Below are positions 249-21,587 of a stretch of DNA of 23,253 bases, piece by piece; the first letter of the stretch is position 1, and each line of letters begins with the position of its first letter. Where the stretch lies: IMG/VR virus record IMGVR_UViG_3300042874_000014, one strand, 5' to 3'. The DNA is from an uncultured virus (IMG/VR IMGVR_UViG_3300042874_000014). Taxonomy: Duplodnaviria > Heunggongvirae > Uroviricota > Caudoviricetes > Crassvirales. The notes beneath the pieces are model-generated. The model did not search any database. It was not told the origin of the DNA and saw only the letters and a list, made by a program, of their open reading frames with translations. A program made the translations under genes and the position numbers.

Positions 249-935
249 TTATCTATTATGAAATGATATATCCGTTGCATCAGGATTTAATACTAAGCTA
301 GTCCATAACTTTCTGTGTATTTCACGAGCGTCCCTGTCTAAACCCTTAGCACTATTCTTAGCTTTTAAAAACCATTTCTGCCATAGCTTATTTGGGTTAT
401 TATCGTTCAAATGTGATGCTAATGAGTAAATAGGGTGCTTGTAACCTCTAGCTATTATTCTAAACAATAGGTAATATTCTATTGCTAGTAATACCTTTTC
501 TCTGTTAGGTACTAATGGTATCTCCATGTTTAATTCCTCACAAAATTTACTAGCTAGTTTAAAATAATGAACTCTCATAGTAGCATCTTTATACCCACTA
601 ACAAATGTACCATCGTTGTTTAACTGATATGTACCTTTATTTGGAAATTCATCAGCTTGCTCTACGTCATGTTTGTTAGCACTATTTACTCTAATTTGTC
701 TAATCTTCATGTACTCTATTGCCTTAAGACCTTGTATAAAACATGGTAGCTGACCTATGTGATTTTTAACTTCTACGTCTTCGTGGCAAGGTATAAAACC
801 ATCATATATATTCATATGATTTAAAGCTTCACCTATCCATTCGTATGCTCTAGGTTCCCAATCACTTGATAGAATGTCATAGTGGTCATATACTCTACGT
901 ATTACCTCTCTACTTGATATTTGTTCATAAATCAT
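249..935 (-). CDS. Tail tubular / ring protein (crAss Ttub, P22 gp4-like; R1-type)
   Basis: 228 aa. N-terminal ISSREVIRRVY..WIGEAL, central GQLPC and YQLNN..FVSGY..MRVHY, then IPLVP...AIEYYLL. Lies between the IHF-like and muzzle genes, as in crAss-like phages. Confidence 0.75.
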   Translation of the reverse strand: MIYEQISSREVIRRVYDHYDILSSDWEPRAYEWIGEALNHMNIYDGFIPCHEDVEVKNHIGQLPCFIQGLKAIEYMKIRQIRVNSANKHDVEQADEFPNKGTYQLNNDGTFVSGYKDATMRVHYFKLASKFCEELNMEIPLVPNREKVLLAIEYYLLFRIIARGYKHPIYSLASHLNDNNPNKLWQKWFLKAKNSAKGLDRDAREIHRKLWTSLVLNPDATDISFHNR

Positions 936-1815
936 AATGCGGATTGTATTTATTAATATGGTCTGGATTCATGTTAGTTAATAATAATGCTCTTTGTACA
1001 TTACCCATACTTAAATTAGTTAAATCGTCAATCGTATAGTTCTTAGTTATATCCTCTATACTGGTTATGTATTTACCCTCTTCTGTGGGATAATAGCTAC
1101 TCGGGTAGAATCTATAATATTGAGAGTTCTTGGCATATCTATGGTTACTCCATTTCCAAAATATCTCTTTAGTTGTTTCATACACACTTAACCATTTCTC
1201 ACCATCGGGTGCTGTCTTTTTATTATATGGTGTACCGCCTTTATCTATAATCGCTTGCTTTCTCTTCATCGAATTAGGGAAGTCATAACAACGTTTCATA
1301 TCAGTAGTATCAAGTACCATTATCTTTATATCGCCTAAGTTAAATGGTATCTTGAATTTCTTATAGCCTTGTATTAATATTTCAGATATGTTAGTATTAT
1401 ACATATTGATTATATTATTAAATGTTCTATAATCAACTATGTCCATACTTTGATTCTCTAATTTATACTCTAGTTCTTTAAACTTTTTATACTTCTTAGT
1501 GTATGTTATAGCGAATGATAATAGTAACGCTTCTTCATCAACTGTAATAGTAACACCGTATCGTTGTGCTTCATCTTTTATTTTAGTTAGCATGGCTTCA
1601 TATGTTGAACCAATACTTGCGTTCTGCATATACTCATACACAAAACCTAATCGTTCTTTTAGTGCATAATTATCTTTAGCCGCTGTAATAAATAACATAT
1701 TAGATACACTTTCTAATGTATTTTCTAAAGCATCGTATGAATATATCATAGCTTTATACTCTTTCTCACTTTGTTCTACATAGTACTTATAGAACTTTCT
1801 AGCATGTGCTCTCAT
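925..1815 (-). CDS. crAss IHF/HU-like protein (IHF_53 type) with N-terminal helical extension
   Basis: 296 aa. C-terminal half FNNIINMYNTNISEILIQGYKKFKIPFNLGDIKI...GTPYNK...GEKWL...FWKW...YYRFYPS resembles divergent IHF-family proteins found at this locus. ATGA overlap with the upstream gene. Confidence 0.65.
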   Translation of the reverse strand: MRAHARKFYKYYVEQSEKEYKAMIYSYDALENTLESVSNMLFITAAKDNYALKERLGFVYEYMQNASIGSTYEAMLTKIKDEAQRYGVTITVDEEALLLSFAITYTKKYKKFKELEYKLENQSMDIVDYRTFNNIINMYNTNISEILIQGYKKFKIPFNLGDIKIMVLDTTDMKRCYDFPNSMKRKQAIIDKGGTPYNKKTAPDGEKWLSVYETTKEIFWKWSNHRYAKNSQYYRFYPSSYYPTEEGKYITSIEDITKNYTIDDLTNLSMGNVQRALLLTNMNPDHINKYNPHYDL

Positions 1816-2453
1816 TCTTTCTCATCGTTTAATTCAACATTAGCTGATATTGGTTTCTCTTTAAGTAGAGCTAATTCTTTAATAACTAAATCTCTAACTA
1901 AGATTAACATACTTGCATCTATTGGTAATTCATAATCTTCGTTATAGCAATTGTCATCATCACAACCAAACCTTATCTCACGAGGGTCGGCGTATATTGC
2001 ATCAACTCGTATTCTCATTTTCTTTATATTGTAAAAGTACAGATAGCCATCTCGCCATTCATACATTGGTACATTAGCTGTAAATCTAGCAAATCTTTGA
2101 TGTTTTTGAGAAGCTATAAACGTAGATATAAAAATAACTGTTCCGTCTACGTTTGATACATTTACAAAAGGTGCATCGCTTCTATAATATAAAGGTTTTA
2201 CTATCTTATTCTCAGTTCTAAATATCTTACAGTTTCCTGTAACTTTACAATCATCGCCTACATCAACACGTATTATTTCAGGTTTAAAAGATAGAAGATT
2301 ATGTCTACTAACACCTTCTTTATCTATCCTTTCTTTTATCACTTTAGCTATTACAGCTATTGTTAAATCTTTAATACGTTCTTTTAATACACCATCTAGT
2401 GCTCTATTAAAACTGTGGGCAATATCTGAACTAAACTGGTTAAGATTAGGCAT
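1812..2453 (-). CDS. Tail ring protein (R2-type)
   Basis: 213 aa. MPNLNQFSSDI start, Cys pairs (DDCKVTGNCK, GCDDDNCY), RT..KI.KP, DGYLYFYN and YADP...YELPID; synteny upstream of the IHF and Ttub genes. Confidence 0.7.
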   Translation of the reverse strand: MPNLNQFSSDIAHSFNRALDGVLKERIKDLTIAVIAKVIKERIDKEGVSRHNLLSFKPEIIRVDVGDDCKVTGNCKIFRTENKIVKPLYYRSDAPFVNVSNVDGTVIFISTFIASQKHQRFARFTANVPMYEWRDGYLYFYNIKKMRIRVDAIYADPREIRFGCDDDNCYNEDYELPIDASMLILVRDLVIKELALLKEKPISANVELNDEKE

Positions 2454-3936
2454 TGTTGACTAATGTTAAACTATCCATAGCACCATCAAATAAAGGTGCA
2501 AGTAGAATAAATCTCACAGTTCTATCGACAGTATCTGATGGAATAGTTATAGACCCAGTACCGTGAATATATGCTTCTTCTTCTGCATTAAATGGTGCTG
2601 AATATATTTTAGTTACCAGTGTAGTACCACTTGTTGTTTTTACTATAAGATGCATATGACCAGTAAGAGCACCTTGACCGTCATACAATATACCTGACAA
2701 GTCTACACTTAATGTAAATGTCTGACCAGCTGGAATCAACAACGTATGGTTACTATTATTGAATATATCAGATACGTCATAAGTATCTCCGACGTTATCG
2801 TATAATACTACACTATATTCGACAGCTTCTGTTAATGATACACCTCCGTTAGTTCTTATTTTAAAACTATTTTCAATAGTAGGATTAGGATTACTACCAC
2901 CACAAGCAGCCATGCAATATTTCAATGTCCATGCTCCACTTTCTTTACTATACCATTCACCAGTATTAGTATTAAGATAAGAGTCTCCATTAGCACCAGT
3001 TGAATTACTTGGTGTAACTATACCATATCTCATTGTAAAGCCACTACCTGACGTACTAGCAGGGATAGTAGTTATTAAATTAGTTATATTAACCGCACCG
3101 TTATATAGACTAATAGAACCATCGGGATTATTAAACGCAGTTACTAATATATTCTCTTGAATATCATGTGTCCATAGAACTCCCCCCGTAGGTGAGAAAT
3201 ATGTGAGCGTTGTTACTGTGCCTATTCTACTAGCTGTAATATAATTCTGTTTAGGGATAGATACTAGAGTAGTCGTTGAACCATTATAAGTTACCTCAAT
3301 GTCATAAGTTGCGGCTGTTTCTGTAACACTTGTTTGGTCAGATAGTCTAATAGTAGTGGGTATCCAATCAGCACCGTCGTGTGTAAATACTTGATTTTTA
3401 ATATCGGCTACGATTGCTACATCACCTGCTACACCGGCAAGTGTTAGTAAATCGTTTGTAGTATTTACAATATACCATCGCGGAGTACTTGACGTAGAAC
3501 CTAGATTGATACTTAATGTACTACCGTTTCTATAAGTAATTATTAAATTCGGTGCTGTATATGTAATATCAATAACATTACTCATTAATACATCTTCCAC
3601 TATACTGATAGGATATATTAGTGTAAAACCATCTGCGTCTACTGTAAGTCTTTGTAATAACTGTGCCTCTGTACCTACTTTAACTAAACCTTGTGTAGTA
3701 GTACTAGCAGTATCACCTACGTTTAGTTTAAAAGTCTGTGATTCAAATAGTTTTTTAAAGACATCTTCATTAGGGAAATGACCAGCTAGAAATCTATTCT
3801 TGACTACTTGATTAACCCCATCGGGTAATGTTATAGTGTACTCTATCGGAAACCCTGTCTCCATGTCAGCATTAGCACCTATCGGTACTTGAATAGCTCT
3901 TAAGAAAAACTCTTTTTTCTCTTTTATTGTACTCAT
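2446..3936 (-). CDS. Tail fibre / receptor-binding protein
   Basis: 496 aa, Thr/Gly/Ser-rich. Fibre repeat ASTTTQGLVKVG, trimeric knob-like motifs (GVAGDVAIV...FTHDGADW; PSNSTGANGDSYLNTNTGEWYSKESGAW) and a beta-rich C-terminal tip. Confidence 0.65.
   Translation of the reverse strand: MSTIKEKKEFFLRAIQVPIGANADMETGFPIEYTITLPDGVNQVVKNRFLAGHFPNEDVFKKLFESQTFKLNVGDTASTTTQGLVKVGTEAQLLQRLTVDADGFTLIYPISIVEDVLMSNVIDITYTAPNLIITYRNGSTLSINLGSTSSTPRWYIVNTTNDLLTLAGVAGDVAIVADIKNQVFTHDGADWIPTTIRLSDQTSVTETAATYDIEVTYNGSTTTLVSIPKQNYITASRIGTVTTLTYFSPTGGVLWTHDIQENILVTAFNNPDGSISLYNGAVNITNLITTIPASTSGSGFTMRYGIVTPSNSTGANGDSYLNTNTGEWYSKESGAWTLKYCMAACGGSNPNPTIENSFKIRTNGGVSLTEAVEYSVVLYDNVGDTYDVSDIFNNSNHTLLIPAGQTFTLSVDLSGILYDGQGALTGHMHLIVKTTSGTTLVTKIYSAPFNAEEEAYIHGTGSITIPSDTVDRTVRFILLAPLFDGAMDSLTLVNNA
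3180..3200 (-). repeat. 21-bp exact dispersed repeat, copy 1 (ATTTCTCACCTACGGGGGGAG)
   Basis: Plus-strand ctccccccgtaggtgagaaat is identical to 19760-19780. Confidence 0.9.
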
Positions 3937-8599: not shown

Positions 8600-10765
8600 T
8601 TATTTACAAGATATACAATTAGATGGGGCTGTATCACACTCATTACAGTATTCAACAAGCCTTTCAAATATTTTAGCAATGTCTGGTATATTCAATAACT
8701 CAACATCTCTAATTACACTATCTGTGTTGATGTTGAAATTAGGATTACGTGAGCTAATTAAACTAATGTATGTTTGAAACTGCAACATCAATGCGTTTAT
8801 ATCGTAAAATCTAGTTTCTTTGCATCGTGTGTCGATACAACCACAAGCTAATGATTTAATAAGATTAAGCATACATTGATTAAACTTACAGGTAGATATA
8901 AAATAATAAATAGCATTATCTATTTCAATCTTATATATACCATCAGTAGGTAATACGATATCTCTACTAGCCGTAGGTAATAATGTCTCACTGATTACAA
9001 TGTTGTTAAATTGATATTGAGAATCAACACTTGTAACAACAAATGGCATATCGGCTGTTGTTAGATTCTTTACAACTATTGTATTACAAGTCTTACTAAG
9101 TAATAAATGATGAACATGACCATTTATCAATTCTGAATCAGTACATAGTATAAAAGGAGTTAATGTTCCATTTATTGTTTCATTTATACTCAATGTGTAT
9201 TTAACCACATATTGACCTCGTACAGGAGTATTGAAATTAAATACATAATTATCAGGATTAAAGTTATTCATAATCCATTCTGTACCAGTCCACTCGTTAG
9301 CTACAAATTGATACGTTTCGCTCTGTACAACACTACCTGTATAATCTATCAATTCCCATAGTATATCTATTTGATTAAACGGATATATAATACTATCGTC
9401 TCTCCAGAATTTACTAAGTATCGACAAATCCATATTTAATACACCAGTAGCATTATCTACAACTATACAGCTATCTGTACATTCAGCAGCTCCTTCTATC
9501 ATTAGATAGTGATTGAATGTTAAATTAGTCTTTTCTACAAGTCGTTTACTAACCTGACCGTTCACAGTACGACTAACACATACGGTATTCTTTTTACAAG
9601 TAGCACCATTATTAAAATTAAATGTATCAACTACTGTAGTAGTACTATCACAAATTATCTCATAGTAGTTATCTAATTCAGGGTCAATCATACTTTGACT
9701 ATTGAATAGATAAATAGTATTATAATAAGGGTGGCGATATGCGATAAAATCCGAATGCTTACCTTTAGAATAATCATTAGGGGTTGGTAATAATCTATTT
9801 CTAACTTCAGCTTGTACTCCACTTATCACATTAAGGTCGTCAGTTAATACGGCATTATAATAATCCATATATACTGATTCTAATATCGATATTACTGTAC
9901 CAGTAGGTATATGAGTACCATCAAAATCAGTTACATGATTCAAGGTATAAGTATGAACGCCATTATCAAAACTATGAGTGGTACTAACAGCTACTTGTAC
10001 TAACGAGAACGTATTATTATCAAATACGTTTATTGACAATATAGTTATATCAGAATCTATAATTATATATGTACTTGTACCTATTGTTATACCTACAGTT
10101 TGAGCTAAACTTTCGTAATTAGTTATTAAACCATTCTTATTACTAATAATAGGAATATCTGATGCTATTTCGGTAGGATATAACACTATACAAAATTCAG
10201 GACTATGCCATGTAAAATTAGGCTTATTTTGTCCTGAATATACAATATCGCAATTATCGTTAGCTCTTTGTGAATAGTTATGTTTATTATCTTCTACGGT
10301 TTCAGGTATCTCAGTATTATAATAAGGTACTATACCTGTAACATCATATTCATTTCGATTATTTCCTATATCGTACCCGAACACTCTAAAGTTATTTCGG
10401 TATGATTCAAATCTCTCTACTTCTAATTCTAATTCGAAATCAACATAGTTCCATATATTAATCAAAGGTATATTTAATTCTAATCCAATACTACGAAGAA
10501 TACCACCTTGATTATAGACTTTAAGACTTATTGTAGCATTTAATGTATTATGTATAGAATCTTGAATAAGAAAATCATATGGGGTGTTAGCTGTAAATGT
10601 ATTATTAATCTTTTCGAATATGATATTTCCGTTTTGATGTAATCTTATAGTTATAGGTCTAAGTAACCCATCGATTGACATCAAATCTCTAACGTTACTA
10701 CTGTAATCTCTATTGTTAAAACCTACAACAGTATCGGAACTTACTACATTTATTTTACATTTCAT
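8600..10765 (-). CDS. Large Cys-rich structural protein, putative tail hub A-like with extra beta domains
   Basis: 721 aa with 19 Cys. C-terminal LPTDGIYKIEI...CKFNQCML..IKSLACGC...YCNECD...CISCK. First gene after the auxiliary capsid gene, where crAss-like phages encode tail hub proteins. Confidence 0.5.
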   Translation of the reverse strand: MKCKINVVSSDTVVGFNNRDYSSNVRDLMSIDGLLRPITIRLHQNGNIIFEKINNTFTANTPYDFLIQDSIHNTLNATISLKVYNQGGILRSIGLELNIPLINIWNYVDFELELEVERFESYRNNFRVFGYDIGNNRNEYDVTGIVPYYNTEIPETVEDNKHNYSQRANDNCDIVYSGQNKPNFTWHSPEFCIVLYPTEIASDIPIISNKNGLITNYESLAQTVGITIGTSTYIIIDSDITILSINVFDNNTFSLVQVAVSTTHSFDNGVHTYTLNHVTDFDGTHIPTGTVISILESVYMDYYNAVLTDDLNVISGVQAEVRNRLLPTPNDYSKGKHSDFIAYRHPYYNTIYLFNSQSMIDPELDNYYEIICDSTTTVVDTFNFNNGATCKKNTVCVSRTVNGQVSKRLVEKTNLTFNHYLMIEGAAECTDSCIVVDNATGVLNMDLSILSKFWRDDSIIYPFNQIDILWELIDYTGSVVQSETYQFVANEWTGTEWIMNNFNPDNYVFNFNTPVRGQYVVKYTLSINETINGTLTPFILCTDSELINGHVHHLLLSKTCNTIVVKNLTTADMPFVVTSVDSQYQFNNIVISETLLPTASRDIVLPTDGIYKIEIDNAIYYFISTCKFNQCMLNLIKSLACGCIDTRCKETRFYDINALMLQFQTYISLISSRNPNFNINTDSVIRDVELLNIPDIAKIFERLVEYCNECDTAPSNCISCK

Positions 10766-10782: not shown

Positions 10783-10817
10783 AAAAAAGGGCTTATGCTT
10801 TTTATAACATAAGCCCT
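10783..10817 (-). terminator. Rho-independent terminator closing the capsid gene block
   Basis: Minus strand AGGGCTTATG-TTATAAAAAG-CATAAGCCCT followed by a T run. Perfect 10-bp stem 23 nt after the auxiliary capsid stop codon. Confidence 0.85.
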
Positions 10818-10840
10818 CGTAATTAAACTTATAACTATTA

Positions 10841-13880: not shown

Positions 13881-15380
13881 TTATCGAGAAGCTAATTTAA
13901 AACAACGTGAACCATCAAGGATATTGATAGAACGAGATTGTTTTACGTGGTATGATGTTTCATCTTTTTCAGTAGCCCATGAACTAGCATCTGGTAATTT
14001 ACCCCAAGATGCAGGTAGTGGAGCAGCTCCTTTAACAACACCTACGATATTAGCTTGACCCTTCATTTGAGCAATAATAATATTACGGTCTCCGTCGTAT
14101 GTAGAGTAGTCCATAAGAACACCTGTATGAGATGACATAGGATAACCTGTACGAGGGTGTAAGTTATTATTCTTACGGTCTAGTTCACCAAGGAATCCAG
14201 TATCGAACATTACGTCATGGATAACAGTTACTAAGTGTCCAGCTGGATTAACAAACTGACGGAAAGAGTTACCATATTTCAAGAAACCATCTTTACCACT
14301 CATTACAAATCTATCACCGACGGCAGTTAAGAAAGCAGAACCATGGCTAACTAATTCACCCATGATTGACTCACCGAAGTCCTCTACGAATCCCATACCA
14401 CCGTGAAAGATAAGTTCTTTCTTACCGCTATCTGATTTACCCCAGAAAGCCTCCGATAGAATATTCTTAACTTTACGTAATGGTAAAGTGAATCCGTAAG
14501 AATCAGCATTGCCCTCTTCCTCGATAGTTTCTTCGATACCTGCACCGATTGGAATAACTTTCTGTGATACTTTATCTCTCAAATGGATTACACCATTAGC
14601 GTCTTTATTGTAACGGCTAAGATATAAATCGTGGTTGTTATGTTCACGAATGTCCAACTCGAATTGACGTTGCTCCTCGTTAATCCATAAACTAGATGGC
14701 TTACCATCGACTGTATCACTACCACTAAATTCAATCTGAACAACTTTGTTAGCTAAGTTACCTTGAATACGCTTACTATATCGTTTAAACGATACCATGT
14801 TAGTCATACGACCAGGTCCCATAACATTACTTCTATTACCTACTGAACCAGATTCCGCAACGTTAGGAGCAGTCATTACCCAAAACTTACCACTAATCAA
14901 ATTAGCGATATCGCAACTAGCATTATAATCAGTTGTTTTCAACTGTAATGTGTACTTGAATCCGTTAACTAAACCGCTAACTTCTTCACCCTCGCCATGA
15001 ACATAAGCATGAGTCTTTCCATCAGGAGCTAACAAACCATACTGTGGAATGATATGACTATCCTTGAATACGACATCGAATGTACTATGTGCATATCCGG
15101 GTGCTGGGTTAGCTGCAACGTCAAATGATACAACCTCTGAAGTATGGTGCATTTCACCCATAGTATCCCAGAAGTAATCACGGTCATTTACATCTTTAAT
15201 ATTACCCTGACCCTCACTCATTGTTAAAAAGCCGAAACGGTTACCGAATTGACCATTACCCCAAAGATGCGTAAGCTTAGTACTAATCTTATCAGGTGTA
15301 CGAAGTATTAATTTATTTAATGAATCTTCGTCAGTGAATTGTTTAGATTCATAGTTTGCACTATATAATTCTCTTAACAT
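13881..15380 (-). CDS. Major capsid protein (crAss-like, HK97 fold)
   Basis: 499 aa. FTDEDSL...THLWG...F.FLTMSEGQG, SVGNRSNVMGPGRMTN, LWINEEQRQF, IPIGAGI, HPRTGYP, DYSTYDGDRNI are all characteristic of crAss-like major capsid proteins. Confidence 0.92.
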   Translation of the reverse strand: MLRELYSANYESKQFTDEDSLNKLILRTPDKISTKLTHLWGNGQFGNRFGFLTMSEGQGNIKDVNDRDYFWDTMGEMHHTSEVVSFDVAANPAPGYAHSTFDVVFKDSHIIPQYGLLAPDGKTHAYVHGEGEEVSGLVNGFKYTLQLKTTDYNASCDIANLISGKFWVMTAPNVAESGSVGNRSNVMGPGRMTNMVSFKRYSKRIQGNLANKVVQIEFSGSDTVDGKPSSLWINEEQRQFELDIREHNNHDLYLSRYNKDANGVIHLRDKVSQKVIPIGAGIEETIEEEGNADSYGFTLPLRKVKNILSEAFWGKSDSGKKELIFHGGMGFVEDFGESIMGELVSHGSAFLTAVGDRFVMSGKDGFLKYGNSFRQFVNPAGHLVTVIHDVMFDTGFLGELDRKNNNLHPRTGYPMSSHTGVLMDYSTYDGDRNIIIAQMKGQANIVGVVKGAAPLPASWGKLPDASSWATEKDETSYHVKQSRSINILDGSRCFKLASR

Positions 15381-16846: not shown

Positions 16847-19195
16847 TTATTTGCTAGATTTAGCAATAGGTTTTCTATTAGCTACATATTTAGCGGTATC
16901 GGCTTGTATCTTAGCTACACTTATAGCTGTGTCTGCTTGTAGTTTAGCAATATTGTCTTTAATAGTATTGGCTTTATCAGCTATACTCTCAGTACTATCA
17001 CCGTCTGATGTTATTTCAGCTAATTGTAATTCTATATCTTTTAATTGTAAAGCTAATGTATTCTTCATAGACTGTAAATCATAATCTTTCTGTAATGTAG
17101 CACTAAATCTAGCATCTTCACGTTGAATCATTTCAGTTCTTATCGCATCGTTACGTTTAGCTGTTTCTTGTTCAGCTTTAGCTTGAGCATCAGCTCTACT
17201 ACGTTCTAACTTAGTCCAATCACTTACTATCTTTCTAAACTTAGTGCTATTATTAGCTTCAATAGCTTTAGCTGCTAATTCGATATTACCAGCATTTGCA
17301 GTACTCATTACTAATTGTTCATACATATTCTCTTTACGAGCTTCTGAATAACTATTAGCTATAAATATACCATAATTACTTTCGATATGGTCTTTACCAT
17401 TAACTGAAAAGTAAGCTAATTTATTATCGCTATTATTATATGCACCTTTTGCTTTAGTACCATCTTCCTCAGCCCACGCATACTTAGAGTGGTCTAGTAA
17501 TGACATATACTCTTTCTCCATAGCTTTAGTAAATACTTCGTTAATAGGTAATGAACCAATACTAGCTCTGAATACGGCATCTTCGTTAACACCTTTACCA
17601 TCACTAGCGTAAGTCTGACCAAATCTTTGTCGATTCATACTTACCTCGTCCCATGCTTCTTCTTTGATTTCAATAAGTATCTGACTAAGTGCCGATATAT
17701 ATTGAGTATCATTAGCATTAACAGTCTTCAAACCATTTATGGCATTAGCGAAATTATCAGCAGTTTCGTCTACATACACAACACCATCGGACTTAATATA
17801 ATATACCGCTTCTTCTTGACTTATTTCATCATCGTCTGACAATAGCCCTTTAGGTAGTACTAACAATTGTCCTTTGTTACGTGCTATCGTAAGCTCTCTG
17901 TAATAATGAATAACATTGAATAAAATCTGATATGGTATTAATGCTCTTATTATAGAATGACTAAATACATTAGTAAATAAAAAGTTCTTACCCCCGTAAG
18001 GTAATTTAACCATAGATGAATTATTCAAATCATCACGTTGTACTAATAATTCGCTAACAGGTAAATAAACACCTATCGCTTTTGGTCCAAGTCTATATGA
18101 TTCATATACTCTATTACGCCATACTGATTCTACTTTAATATCGCCATTAGCTTTATCCAATTTATAATCGGCACTAACTTCTTTAGATATTACTGAACCT
18201 AATGTGTCCTTATAGTAAACAATCTTTATTTCCTTTTGTCCTTTAAACACACAATGAGCAATTTCCGTGAAACGTTCACTATCAGCGAATGTGTTATTTA
18301 AAAGTCTATCGACTATTGTCATTGTTCGACTAGGATTGTCTATATCTCTAACTAACACAGGTCCACCGTTTGGTGTAGAAAGTAATAAATCCTCTAGTTT
18401 AGAATACTGCTCTTTAGATAGTTTATCACCAAATCTAATCATTATCCCGGGTATGCTATCTTTATATATTCTAACAAATGCATCATTATCTTCAATAAAG
18501 TCAGAAGTACCGATAGGATAACCCTCTAACGGGCTTACAATCTCTTCAACTATATCATCGTTACTAATGCCAGTATAAGTATAAAATTGACCAAGTGCTA
18601 CCCAATCAAGATACGCTTCCCAAAACTTATATTCTAAATCTAGTGTTTGCTCTAAGTAAGTAATAGCTTCTTGACCGAATAGAGCACGCTGGTCATTCCA
18701 GTTCTCTGTAAAGTCTTTAACAACACTAGCTATATCTACCTCTTCACCCTCTGGAGCAGGAGTACCAAAACTCTTACCCATTAATGATTGAAACTTCTTT
18801 TTTAATAACACAGTAGTTAAAGCTGTTAATTCTTCTTTAAACTTGTTTATACTATCTGGGTTATTAACACCTACTTTAATAGGTTTTCTACTCTTTACAA
18901 TCTCACCTAAGAATCGTTGCCAAATAGGTGTTATTATATTATAGTTACGAAGCTTTGCTGGAAATTGCGTAAGCTTAGGATTTTCAGAACCGTAAGGCTC
19001 AATCACATAACTATAACTCTTACTATCTACTTCGCCATTCATGGCTAGTATTAATTTTTCAATCTCGTCTTTATCATTCTGCGATGAACCGGTAGCACGT
19101 GAGATAAGTATATCAGTTACTGATTCAGTAAATGCTATACTATGTTTCACTTCTTCGCTAACACGCTGTTCCGGAAAATAATTAATTTTATCCAT
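16847..19195 (-). CDS. Portal protein
   Basis: 782 aa after TerL. FPEQRVS, FPAKLRNYNII.P...FLGE, KLPYGG, PYQIL.N..HY.RE..IA.NKG, MNRQRFG and a coiled-coil C-terminus match crAss-like portals. Confidence 0.92.
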   Translation of the reverse strand: MDKINYFPEQRVSEEVKHSIAFTESVTDILISRATGSSQNDKDEIEKLILAMNGEVDSKSYSYVIEPYGSENPKLTQFPAKLRNYNIITPIWQRFLGEIVKSRKPIKVGVNNPDSINKFKEELTALTTVLLKKKFQSLMGKSFGTPAPEGEEVDIASVVKDFTENWNDQRALFGQEAITYLEQTLDLEYKFWEAYLDWVALGQFYTYTGISNDDIVEEIVSPLEGYPIGTSDFIEDNDAFVRIYKDSIPGIMIRFGDKLSKEQYSKLEDLLLSTPNGGPVLVRDIDNPSRTMTIVDRLLNNTFADSERFTEIAHCVFKGQKEIKIVYYKDTLGSVISKEVSADYKLDKANGDIKVESVWRNRVYESYRLGPKAIGVYLPVSELLVQRDDLNNSSMVKLPYGGKNFLFTNVFSHSIIRALIPYQILFNVIHYYRELTIARNKGQLLVLPKGLLSDDDEISQEEAVYYIKSDGVVYVDETADNFANAINGLKTVNANDTQYISALSQILIEIKEEAWDEVSMNRQRFGQTYASDGKGVNEDAVFRASIGSLPINEVFTKAMEKEYMSLLDHSKYAWAEEDGTKAKGAYNNSDNKLAYFSVNGKDHIESNYGIFIANSYSEARKENMYEQLVMSTANAGNIELAAKAIEANNSTKFRKIVSDWTKLERSRADAQAKAEQETAKRNDAIRTEMIQREDARFSATLQKDYDLQSMKNTLALQLKDIELQLAEITSDGDSTESIADKANTIKDNIAKLQADTAISVAKIQADTAKYVANRKPIAKSSK

Positions 19196-19238: not shown

Positions 19239-21587
19239 TTACGAGTACCATTCTTTTTTGAATATACTTTTTTTAGATTTTTTGCTAGTATCTTTAACAG
19301 CTTGTTTACTAAGCGATAATTCCTTATCATCAAACATAGCTAGTAGAAAATCAGATAGTCTATCAAAGTTATCATCGGGGTTCCAATCTCTAATCTCTTC
19401 AAGAAAAGGTAAGTCAAAGATATAATGAAAATTATATTTAATAACACCCTCTGAATCATTACCTCTAGTAGAATGTAACCATTCTCTAAAGTAGGTTATT
19501 GCTTCACTTTTCCTATTACCTTTACCTATTGTTATACCATATGTATCTTCTTTTACATCTGATACTTTTAAATTGAATACGCGATGTGGTTGTTTAACCA
19601 ATCTATCTAATCGTTTATGTTTTCTAAAGAAAGCCACTGTATCACCCCTGTCTGTCTCAGGTAGTATCTTAGCGTTATACATATCGGCAGTATCTAATAA
19701 TAATCTAAACACTGTATCATTTTTATCAGGTCTACCTGTATATGATGCGACTATCGTATCTCCCCCCGTAGGTGAGAAATTGTTGATTCTCTGTCTAACC
19801 TTGAATGAGTGCAATGAATCTTTCTTTGTTAAAGTCTTTGTATCTTTATCAATAGCAACAGGGTCATAAGTTATTCTATAAAGATTGTCAGGAATAAGCC
19901 CTTCATCATTTGTTTCAGGAGGATAGAATACACGTAAAGCACCATGTAAATCATCACCTTTTTTAACTAATCTGTGAGGTATAAAGTCATGTATCTTTGA
20001 ACCCTCATTAGTTAGCTCACGGTTAGATTTAAAGACCGCACGACCTAGTTTATTTCGAGTAATCCAACCGTCAGTATAGAATCTATAATCGGGGTCATGT
20101 TCTACTCGGCTAATATGGTCTAATAATTCAGGCGTTACGAAGTCGTTATCCTTATTAACACCAAAGCTCTCTTGCGGGCTGTTAGAATATTGACCTACAT
20201 AAACGATATAGTCAGATGTACTCTTCTTAGATTTAGCGTCTAAGCGTTCAGCGTTTGATATTTCGAGGGCAGCCGTATAGTTAGAATTGCCGAATTTATC
20301 AATAGCTGCTGTACCATTTGAAGTAACACCCTCTAAATTTTGTATGTACATCTTATAATAACCACATACTCTATTTCGACTATTTTTATCCCATACGTTC
20401 TCAAACTCCATAGCGTCGTACATAGAGGGTTGATAGAACCATATTTTAAAGTTAAACCAATCACCCTCCGTACTACCACCAGTACCGAAACCTATTATAG
20501 TACCTACCTTATACGAACCTGCTCTAGTTGTTGGCTCAGTTACATTAAGGAATGCAAATAGATTAGGAGTATTAGATAACTCTTCAATCTTAATCTTAAT
20601 TGCATCTTTACCGATAGCAGCATCAACATCAGTACCGAAAGATAAAGATAATAGTTTAGATTGATAACCAGACGGTGTACCATCTTTTAATCTAAAGCCT
20701 AATTGTAAATCATCTAGTTCTTTCTTATATAATCCAGCAGGGTCGCCGTTAGGTTTCCTACCACAGCGATTAAAAGGTGTAAACTCTTCATAGAAGTTTA
20801 ATTGGTCAAAAGCCATACGAGCTATCGAACGACCTTTAGTTAAATACTTTAAATCATACGCTGCGAATATGTTAGTAGTGGAAGCATATAAATTAGCATC
20901 GTTAGCACTATCTATGGCTTCTTGATAAGACCAACCGGCACGTCTGGCTTTACCCATTACTAGATTAAGTCCGTTAATTCTAGCAAATCTTTTTATTTTA
21001 CCCCACCAGTACTGACTGATAAAGAATCTAGGAAAACCGTCTTTCTTAGTCTTAGATGAATCAGATACATCACTAGCTGAATTATCATCTTCTGTCCTAG
21101 ACATTCTACCATAGTTTAGAAGATTGTATTGCTCACCCGATATATGCAATGCTTTAACATACTTAGCTCTATCTTCGGGTCTAGTTGCGTTGTAAACTAA
21201 TACATCAGATTTCAAAACTTTACAGTATTCAGTAACTCCGTACTTTCGCTTCTCTACTTCTTCATCATGGAATCTTACATAGTCTACACTATCTATTTCA
21301 GCATCTGTGTATTTACCAGTTATCTCAAAGTGATTGGCTACTGTCGTAAATAAGTGTGTATTAATTACTACAAAATCCTCATTCATTAAGAAGCCACCAC
21401 TCGCACCAACTAAGAAATCCCCATCATCGTCGTAAAAGGCTTTACCTGTTTTCGGGTTTATAGTAGCATTAGCTTTAGGATATTTAGATTTATCTTCGTT
21501 ATACCACGATATGTAAGGGTGGTTTAAAGTTTCAGTTTCATTAGGAAACGCAACATCTAAGTCTATGTCGGGGAATGTTAGATACAT
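19239..21587 (-). CDS. terL: Terminase large subunit
   Basis: 782 aa. Walker A variant GKARRAGWS, Walker B IKIEE, motif III-like GFGTGG, and RNase H-like nuclease acidic motifs ITYDP..D and NFDRLSD. Confidence 0.93.
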   Translation of the reverse strand: MYLTFPDIDLDVAFPNETETLNHPYISWYNEDKSKYPKANATINPKTGKAFYDDDGDFLVGASGGFLMNEDFVVINTHLFTTVANHFEITGKYTDAEIDSVDYVRFHDEEVEKRKYGVTEYCKVLKSDVLVYNATRPEDRAKYVKALHISGEQYNLLNYGRMSRTEDDNSASDVSDSSKTKKDGFPRFFISQYWWGKIKRFARINGLNLVMGKARRAGWSYQEAIDSANDANLYASTTNIFAAYDLKYLTKGRSIARMAFDQLNFYEEFTPFNRCGRKPNGDPAGLYKKELDDLQLGFRLKDGTPSGYQSKLLSLSFGTDVDAAIGKDAIKIKIEELSNTPNLFAFLNVTEPTTRAGSYKVGTIIGFGTGGSTEGDWFNFKIWFYQPSMYDAMEFENVWDKNSRNRVCGYYKMYIQNLEGVTSNGTAAIDKFGNSNYTAALEISNAERLDAKSKKSTSDYIVYVGQYSNSPQESFGVNKDNDFVTPELLDHISRVEHDPDYRFYTDGWITRNKLGRAVFKSNRELTNEGSKIHDFIPHRLVKKGDDLHGALRVFYPPETNDEGLIPDNLYRITYDPVAIDKDTKTLTKKDSLHSFKVRQRINNFSPTGGDTIVASYTGRPDKNDTVFRLLLDTADMYNAKILPETDRGDTVAFFRKHKRLDRLVKQPHRVFNLKVSDVKEDTYGITIGKGNRKSEAITYFREWLHSTRGNDSEGVIKYNFHYIFDLPFLEEIRDWNPDDNFDRLSDFLLAMFDDKELSLSKQAVKDTSKKSKKSIFKKEWYS
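19760..19780 (-). repeat. 21-bp exact dispersed repeat, copy 2
   Basis: Identical to 3180-3200, same orientation, inside terL. Confidence 0.9.

Follow-up and report, generated by a model that had tools for sequence, protein, structure and literature searches.

A G-rich 21-nucleotide repeat in a crAss-like phage and its plausible relation to a gene-boundary motif of related phages

Short recurring motifs in phage and bacterial genomes

This study deals with a stretch of 23,253 nucleotides from an uncultured virus of the Crassvirales (IMG/VR record IMGVR_UViG_3300042874_000014), which at its full length is referred to as the window, and with the octamer TACGGGGG found in it. Two copies of the octamer form the middle of an exact 21-nucleotide repeat, ATTTCTCACCTACGGGGGGAG, located in the genes for the large terminase subunit (TerL) and for a tail-module protein of 496 amino acids, and a third copy lies in the portal gene. 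Related phages contain a longer repeat of about 25–35 nucleotides (nt) that follows the pattern pyrimidine tract, (T/G)AC, G4–6, N3–4, TA. The reading that we favor, and to which we give about an even chance, is that the two copies within the 21-nt repeat are the G-rich core of a diverged intragenic repeat of this clade family and that the portal copy is coincidental; the 21-nt repeat would then belong to a repeat family of crAss-like phages that serves as a marker of gene boundaries in the relatives.

Three groups of described elements invite comparison. Chi (RecBCD/AddAB) and KOPS are words of 5–8 nt whose flanks are not conserved, which are skewed to one strand per replichore and which are mostly intragenic. 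Like these, TACGGGGG is a short G-rich word with all exact window copies on one strand; unlike them, it has flanks conserved over at least 21 nt (21 bases are shared by two of the three window copies, and at least 25 nt by the copies in relatives), a copy in reverse orientation is present, and the motif of the relatives lies on both strands and mainly between genes. Genome-specific phage promoter families are exemplified by the 23-nt T7-type promoters and by the T4 middle promoters with their MotA box. The motif of the relatives resembles such families in the many near-identical copies of 25–35 nt per genome, in a consensus that differs between related phages, in a position directly before genes, in a TAnnnN hexamer at fixed offset and in occasional copies within coding regions. 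It departs from them in its antisense and convergent copies and in having a pyrimidine tract and ACGGGG instead of a –35-like box, and the window copies are without the hexamer. REP, BIME and REPIN elements, finally, are extragenic, occur in both orientations and as inverted pairs, contain a palindromic hairpin and are linked to a RAYT transposase. The motif of the relatives is like them in length (25–35 nt), in its extragenic placement, in lying in either orientation and as inverted pairs, and in a consensus that differs between genomes; however, it has no palindromic hairpin, resides in phage genomes, keeps a fixed distance to the start codon in four cases and is not accompanied by a RAYT-like transposase among the gene products searched (see below).

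For crAss-like phages themselves, a study on phage phi14:2 describes tripartite sigma-70-like middle promoters in some members of the group; in phi14:2, early promoters are without a common motif, middle and late promoters are sigma-70-like, and 17 of 137 motif hits fall into coding regions (10.1101/2020.03.07.982082). In the halovirus HF2, intergenic repeats of two short classes (29 and 58 bp) are reported to carry promoters, but HF2 is an archaeal virus, its motifs are AT-rich, and there is no sequence relation (PMC8707807).

The 21-nucleotide repeat and the octamer within it

ATTTCTCACCTACGGGGGGAG is the longest exact repeat of the window. Its copies A and B (Table 1) are direct repeats in the same reading frame and both encode the hexapeptide FSPTGG, the only one common to two window proteins when a poly-N run is set aside. 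No wider homology between TerL and the 496-residue protein was found, and outside the repeat neither the proteins nor the flanking sequences are related. The codons used in the two copies are rare ones (ACG 7.4%, GGG 5.7% and GGA 13.5%). When the proteins were kept fixed, none of 1000 synonymous shuffles reached the information content of the repeat, and the 21-nt identity at the FSPTGG pair was rebuilt in about three of 1000. A sequence-only reading of the window had maintained that a shared peptide does not explain the octamer copies. This holds for the two copies that encode TGG, given their 21 identical bases and the rarity with which shuffling restores them; the portal copy is best explained by the conserved peptide PYGGK in which it lies. 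Since octamer copies 1 and 3 are parts of one exact 21-nt repeat, they are not independent of each other.

The same reading had seen no copy in reverse orientation. While this is true for the exact octamer, it does not hold for the extended motif, whose sequence type in the window is ATTTCTCACC..CGGGG. At up to two mismatches, three matches to the extended motif were found compared to 0.00 expected from 100 shuffles, and one of them is a plus-strand copy that agrees in 14 of 16 bases (Table 1). On the sense strand of the gene, this site encodes PDGEKW, a peptide unlike FSPTGG, and because the antisense copy thus encodes something else, the extended motif is to be regarded as a repeat at the level of DNA. 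The true length of the repeat reveals a plus-strand copy, and the argument from a missing reverse copy therefore falls. Taken together, the 21-nt repeat and its reversed third copy are a real DNA-level feature.

We then asked how far the repeat is kept among close relatives and whether it occurs elsewhere. The TerL loop that carries copy B has the same length as in relatives, i.e., it is not an insertion, and it reads MNGTRG, LIPGNG or LVPGGG in relatives of 49–67% identity. Copy B is kept in TerL proteins more than 99% identical to that of the window (L002, P0006). The homologues P0001 (90% identity) and P0002 (85%) of the 496-residue protein read LSPTGG, and because they have L for F, the 21-nt identity is not kept between strains, which weighs against the reading that we favor. 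DNA of the relatives of this open reading frame (ORF) was not found in viral or metagenome contigs. ATTTCTCACCTACGGGGGGAG itself was absent from metagenome contigs, and its only match in IMG/VR was to the near-identical 10-kb contig. No joint between the two copies was present in contigs of four runs, and contigs cannot show rare forms. A host or CRISPR match of ATTTCTCACCTACGGGGGGAG was considered and rejected, the single match in 185,579 species genomes being at chance level. It concerns a metagenome-assembled genome (MAG) of the Acidobacteriota (OZ252113.1; L012, L013), where two identical gene copies contain the sequence in another frame (ISHLRGE); Rfam returned nothing for these loci.

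The octamer as such occurs exactly three times in the window, always on the minus strand (3183–3190, 17991–17998 and 19763–19770). As had been noticed before, the plus strand has no run of five or more C apart from these sites, all of one polarity. Their frames are also as described, with TAC GGG GG(T) giving YGG in the portal gene and T ACG GGG G giving TGG in the other two; runs of five G are absent from the plus strand of the window. If TACGGGGG is taken as fixed beforehand, dinucleotide shuffles yield a mean of 0.09 copies on both strands and none of 100 reaches three. For within-gene synonymous-codon shuffles the coding-strand mean is 0.069, with at least one copy in 334, at least two in 11 and three in none of 5000. 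The word was, however, picked after the sequence had been looked at. When every octamer with at least three copies was scored against an order-2 Markov expectation, TACGGGGG ranked second behind AGCACCCG, which also has three copies on the coding strand and a slightly smaller Poisson p, and the top octamer was equally or more extreme in 159 of the 200 codon-aware shuffles. With this correction for the look-elsewhere effect the codon-aware over-representation is lost, which argues against a polar octamer. Once one copy of the 21-nt repeat is masked, 82 other octamers match the surprise of the two-copy TACGGGGG. CCCGATGG likewise has three copies on the coding strand of the window.

Octamers with one mismatch are not enriched either (six found, 3.9 expected, six reached in 19 of 100 shuffles), and one of the six lies on the plus strand (14150–14157). 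The one at 20465–20472, previously cited for having the same polarity, does exist, but as evidence for a polar motif it is weakened by the fact that it encodes GGSTEGDW, a largely conserved TerL stretch in which G, S, D and W do not vary. Another, TACGAGGG (10814–10821), makes up the 5' arm of a hairpin that resembles a terminator; this hairpin (10787–10818, minus strand) consists of 13 pairs followed by TTTT and is situated just upstream of the ORF at 8600–10765.

The portal copy is most likely a coding coincidence, in which a conserved PYGGK happens to be written with the rare codon GGG (5.7% of the glycine codons of the window). This assignment follows from the conservation of the peptide, PYGGK or PFGGK being present in five of seven aligned portals, and from the codons of L003, the nearest longer relative (portal 55% identical), which writes TAC GGA GGT. 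The octamer at this site is kept only in the near-identical contig L002.

All of this has to be held against the alternative that chance and coding constraint account for everything, with FSPTGG as a chance hexapeptide, the portal GGG as a chance codon and the likeness to the family as nothing but a low-complexity pyrimidine tract beside a G run. We consider it unlikely, albeit the most serious competitor. It is consistent with the octamer being unremarkable after the look-elsewhere correction, with the recurrence of ATTTCTCACCTACGGGGGGAG by chance in one of 185,579 species genomes and with the finding that an exact repeat of at least 21 nt arises somewhere in the window in 10 of 300 shuffles. 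The identical rare codons, the low yield of the synonymous shuffles and the antisense third copy all speak against it, as does the occurrence of AC before G runs, which is taken up below.

The motif family of related phages

The relative G002 (loci L014–L017, 65,449 bases), whose TerL is 66–67% identical to that of the window, contains 13 copies of the 25–35-nt repeat tcCTCTnTatGACGGGGnAGCTAgaa, roughly tcCTCTnTatGACGGGG(g/t/a)AGCTAgaa (Table 1). Ten of the 13 are intergenic, compared to an intergenic share of the contig of 9.1% (p = 8.6e-9, binomial); a copy is present in eight of the 28 gaps that measure at least 30 nt, and several copies occupy the whole 36–61-nt spacer between co-directional genes. 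With respect to genes, six copies are sense, three are antisense and four sit at junctions. The flanks are conserved over at least 25 nt, sub-families are present, and the consensus differs from genome to genome. Copies are spaced more evenly than expected from random placement (coefficient of variation 0.40, P = 0.003). Seven lie on the plus and six on the minus strand without any pattern along the genome axis, and the GC skew of G002 tracks gene direction. Two pairs are arranged face to face, one at a convergent junction (15408/15469) and the other in a long divergent region (44691/45233). A TTTG block is present about 23 nt upstream in eight of the 13 copies. No relative of the G002 motif was detected in deposited phages, and a literature search did not yield a description of a motif of this type.

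These data bear directly on the proposal that the octamer is a strand-polar, Chi- or KOPS-like signal that is read by a nuclease, translocase, primase or terminase of host or phage and steers recombination, replication, packaging or ejection. The G-rich core, the location of all three exact copies on one strand and the absence of three copies of the fixed word from 5000 codon-aware shuffles would be in line with it, and the even spacing in G002 would suit a genome-structural role. On the other hand, every ORF of the window is on the minus strand, so that polarity is inseparable from the direction of transcription there, and in G002 the motif keeps to neither the genome axis nor the direction of transcription; it is mainly intergenic there, with conserved flanks. 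The exact word is missing from the 65 kb of G002 and occurs once per strand in G003, the extended motif has its reverse-orientation copy, and conservation of the portal copy does not extend to its DNA. The observation made on TACGGGGG is real but over-read, and the Chi/KOPS-like interpretation, deprived of its enrichment and confronted with confounded polarity and with a motif on both strands, is not supported; we regard it as extremely improbable, and G002 already comes near to refuting it.

The family extends beyond G002. In L018, L019 and L006, whose TerL proteins are about 50% identical, TTTCYTTTACGGGGG(G)AAYTA or a variant with TTAAGGGGG takes up the spacer that separates the upstream stop codon from the TerL ATG, and further copies reside in AT-rich, repeat-rich non-coding regions. 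The 15-mer TTTCTTTTACGGGGG is present at 61 loci in IMG/VR, of which only L006, L018 and L019 are family members as judged from the flanks. Within the close clade, 13 of 22 G5 runs have AC immediately before them, as opposed to 6 of 36 in 21 loci with TerL identities of at most 41%, and these six are three distinct sites, each in two near-duplicate contigs. TA is found at an offset of 10–11 from the A of ACGGGG in 19 of the 20 copies outside the window. In four copies from three genomes, the distance from the TAnnnN hexamer to the ATG is exactly 7 nt, and the genes concerned are real (TerL in two cases, a DNA-ligase gene and a small ORF upstream of DNA polymerase in one case each). Between co-directional genes of the relatives, the motif is sense in seven cases and antisense in two.

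Do the copies in the window belong to this family? They share the ACG5–6 core and the pyrimidine tract (10, 11 and 8 of 14 upstream bases), and AC precedes all three G5 runs of the window, a feature that the explanation by chance does not predict in view of its frequency inside and outside the clade. A profile built exclusively from 20 copies of relatives (R1, 36 positions) places the window sites at ranks 1, 2 and 4, with about 4 bits and E = 2–2.5. Several points weigh against membership. The profile scores are not significant and mainly driven by ACGGGG. The window copies are without TA at the family offset and read TT, AT and GA instead, the TerL copy fits GGAG.UA only with an insertion of one G, every copy is intragenic, and the motif was absent from all seven gene junctions inspected in the window. 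The E value of only about 2, the missing TA and the intragenic location would equally suit chance. Moreover, with p at about 0.003–0.007 for each window, chance will somewhere in a large scan produce two proteins that share a hexapeptide and its codons. On balance, sequence comparison makes membership of the 21-mer copies plausible, and we lean slightly toward it, though it is unproven; membership of the portal copy is doubtful.

As to function, the family in the relatives may, provided that it is real, be a gene-start expression signal, either a promoter-type element or an operator of a phage-specific factor, a role that we consider possible but somewhat short of an even chance. Such a signal would yield transcripts with almost no leader. 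Among the roles considered it fits best because the copies are intergenic and sense-biased, have a TA hexamer at a fixed short distance from the ATG and follow a genome-specific consensus. The window copies, which have neither the downstream TA hexamer nor a start codon, would probably be relics or at most bind the factor. Several observations do not sit easily with a promoter. Three of the G002 copies are antisense to genes, and at a convergent junction two copies face each other. The upstream block matches neither the sigma-70 consensus nor the –33/–7 consensus of the Bacteroidota. A Pfam search that covered 53 of the 66 ORFs of G002 (the other 13 belong to the structural module or run across locus ends) did not reveal a sigma factor, DNA-binding regulator, transposase or nicking enzyme, and no sigma factor or regulator is recognizable by this means. 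A sigma-70-type motif was tried and rejected: one copy scores as ATGACC-18-TAGAAT, but the distance to the upstream block varies among the other copies.

A more far-reaching version can be formulated only tentatively, and we rather doubt it. This cave and biofilm lineage of crAss-like phages might use an undescribed signal of 25–35 nt (pyrimidine tract, (T/G)AC, G4–6, N3–4, TAnnnN) about every 5.7 kb, mostly in short intergenic spacers and often exactly 7 nt upstream of a start codon, in a version particular to each phage, which would be recognized by an unknown phage transcription factor or polymerase specificity; the 21-mer copies of the window in TerL and the tail gene, together with the reversed one in a third gene, would then be working or recently working sites. 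What remains as a lead is a genome-specific gene-boundary repeat in a poorly sampled environmental branch of the Crassvirales. The timing of transcription in crAss-like phages is only partly known, and a new class of promoters or operators, if it proved true, would add to it; the motif could then also mark operon starts in metagenomic crAss-like genomes.

Another possibility is that the family consists of selfish or neutral interspersed repeats (REP/REPIN- or MITE-like), which spread by copy-paste or short-patch gene conversion, are tolerated mainly between genes and bring no benefit to the phage. The genome-specific consensus, the sub-families of G002, the mostly intergenic location on both strands, the inverted pairs in G002 and L006 (398/622) and the in-frame intragenic copies in both G002 and the window agree with this view. 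We nevertheless judge it improbable. There is no conserved hairpin or palindrome (RNAalifold consensus of –1.07 kcal/mol with four pairs and no compensatory change), a Y1/RAYT-type or other transposase did not appear in the Pfam search, and copy B is no insertion, given a TerL loop as long as in relatives. The 7-nt distance to the start codon in four cases and the position before TerL in three genomes point to a function, and the even spacing of copies is likewise not what this explanation predicts.

An element that acts in RNA appears highly improbable, whether as a small hairpin (pyrimidine arm and G run, UACG tetraloop, bulged A) to which a protein or nuclease would bind or as a –1 slippery heptamer G GGG GGA. 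It is true that the 25-nt core folds with –6.7 kcal/mol (z = –2.1), an energy equalled in 6 of 200 shuffles, and that both 21-mer copies are sense and share one frame, in which G GGG GGA has the X XXY YYZ phase. However, the consensus fold of 22 copies is without a compensatory pair, all variation being C/U opposite G, and folds that include the flanks are unremarkable (z = –1.0, –1.95 and 0.0). Copies antisense to transcription exist, and Rfam gave no match at the gathering threshold in the window, L006 or L014–L019. The hairpin with its tetraloop was accordingly rejected as the principal explanation for want of covariation in the 22-copy consensus. Frameshifting by –1 at G GGG GGA was also discarded; the phase fits, but the –1 frames end in stop codons after about 5 and 10 codons and would give truncated products.

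Genes of the window and further observations in related loci

With its 23 kb, the window represents a structural module from a divergent crAss-like phage; its genes were identified with PHROGs and Pfam (Table 1). The best matches of its TerL among deposited phages are crAss-like phages with identities of at most 36%, and at the DNA level no relative was found among deposited phages. Public runs that contain the window sequence are metagenomes from caves, biofilms and soil; an RNA run is not among the runs listed. All 21 ORFs used are encoded on the minus strand, 97% of the window is coding, and the coding strand is the G-rich one (plus-strand GC skew of –0.07 to –0.22). The 496-residue protein that carries copy A did not match any family in PHROGs or Pfam. 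Among five homologues, about 100 N-terminal residues are conserved and the remainder is replaced or highly variable, a modular pattern that is typical of host-recognition tail proteins.

Table 1. Positions of repeat copies and genes in the window and of motif copies in the relative G002
Feature	Position	Strand	Remarks
Copy A of ATTTCTCACCTACGGGGGGAG	3180..3200	–	In-frame FSPTGG, residues 247–252 of the 496-aa ORF
Copy B of ATTTCTCACCTACGGGGGGAG	19760..19780	–	In-frame FSPTGG, residues 604–609, variable loop of TerL
TACGGGGG, portal copy	17991..17998	–	TAC GGG GG(T) = Y400 G401 G402 of conserved KLPYGGK
ATTTCTCACCATCGGG, reverse-orientation extended motif, 14/16 bases	1194..1209	+	Antisense inside ORF 925–1815
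296-aa ORF	925..1815	–	phrog_12177, unknown function; contains the ATTTCTCACCATCGGG site
crAss tail ring protein 2 gene	1812–2453	–	PF25702 CrAss_Ring_2
496-aa tail-module ORF	2446..3936	–	Function unknown; adjoins the gene for ring protein 2; carries copy A
Major head protein gene	13881–15380	–	PHROGs
Portal protein gene, 782 aa	16847..19195	–	phrog_6547, E 5e-81; holds the portal octamer copy
Large terminase subunit (TerL) gene, 782 aa	19239..21587	–	phrog_6681, E 2e-89; holds copy B and the one-mismatch octamer 20465–20472
G002 motif copies (A of ACGGGG)	7802, 15408, 28376, 40150, 44691, 51926, 61808	+	
G002 motif copies (A of ACGGGG)	45233, 36363, 30712, 21376, 15469, 4704	–	

Some further observations concern the related loci. 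In G002, the two motif copies at the convergence of gene blocks (15392–15485 in L014) face each other at a distance of 60 nt and could form a perfect stem of about 15 bp, i.e., a bidirectional terminator-like structure without a T run. L006 (230–785) and L019 (1–535) contain long AT-rich non-coding regions with iteron-like direct repeats (ATGTTAAATAAT, present twice in L006, and the tagattatataag type in L019). The G-run motif flanks or enters these regions and forms a face-to-face pair in L006 (398/622); they are possibly origins or regulatory switch regions. L005 carries a variant, CTTTCTCCCTCTCCTATCGGGGTTCTTGAATA, at about 3080–3110, in which ATCGGGG follows a long pyrimidine tract some 60 nt before the ATG of TerL, and this variant resembles the reversed copy of the window, ...CACCATCGGG.

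Irregularities in TerL itself were seen in three loci. In L019 (5079–7452) the frame breaks after about 415 codons though the tblastn match runs on, and in L026 (10001–13132) and L027 (7852–10983) the match covers 3132 nt for about 730 residues. Both patterns hint at an intron, intein or frameshift in the TerL genes of these relatives.

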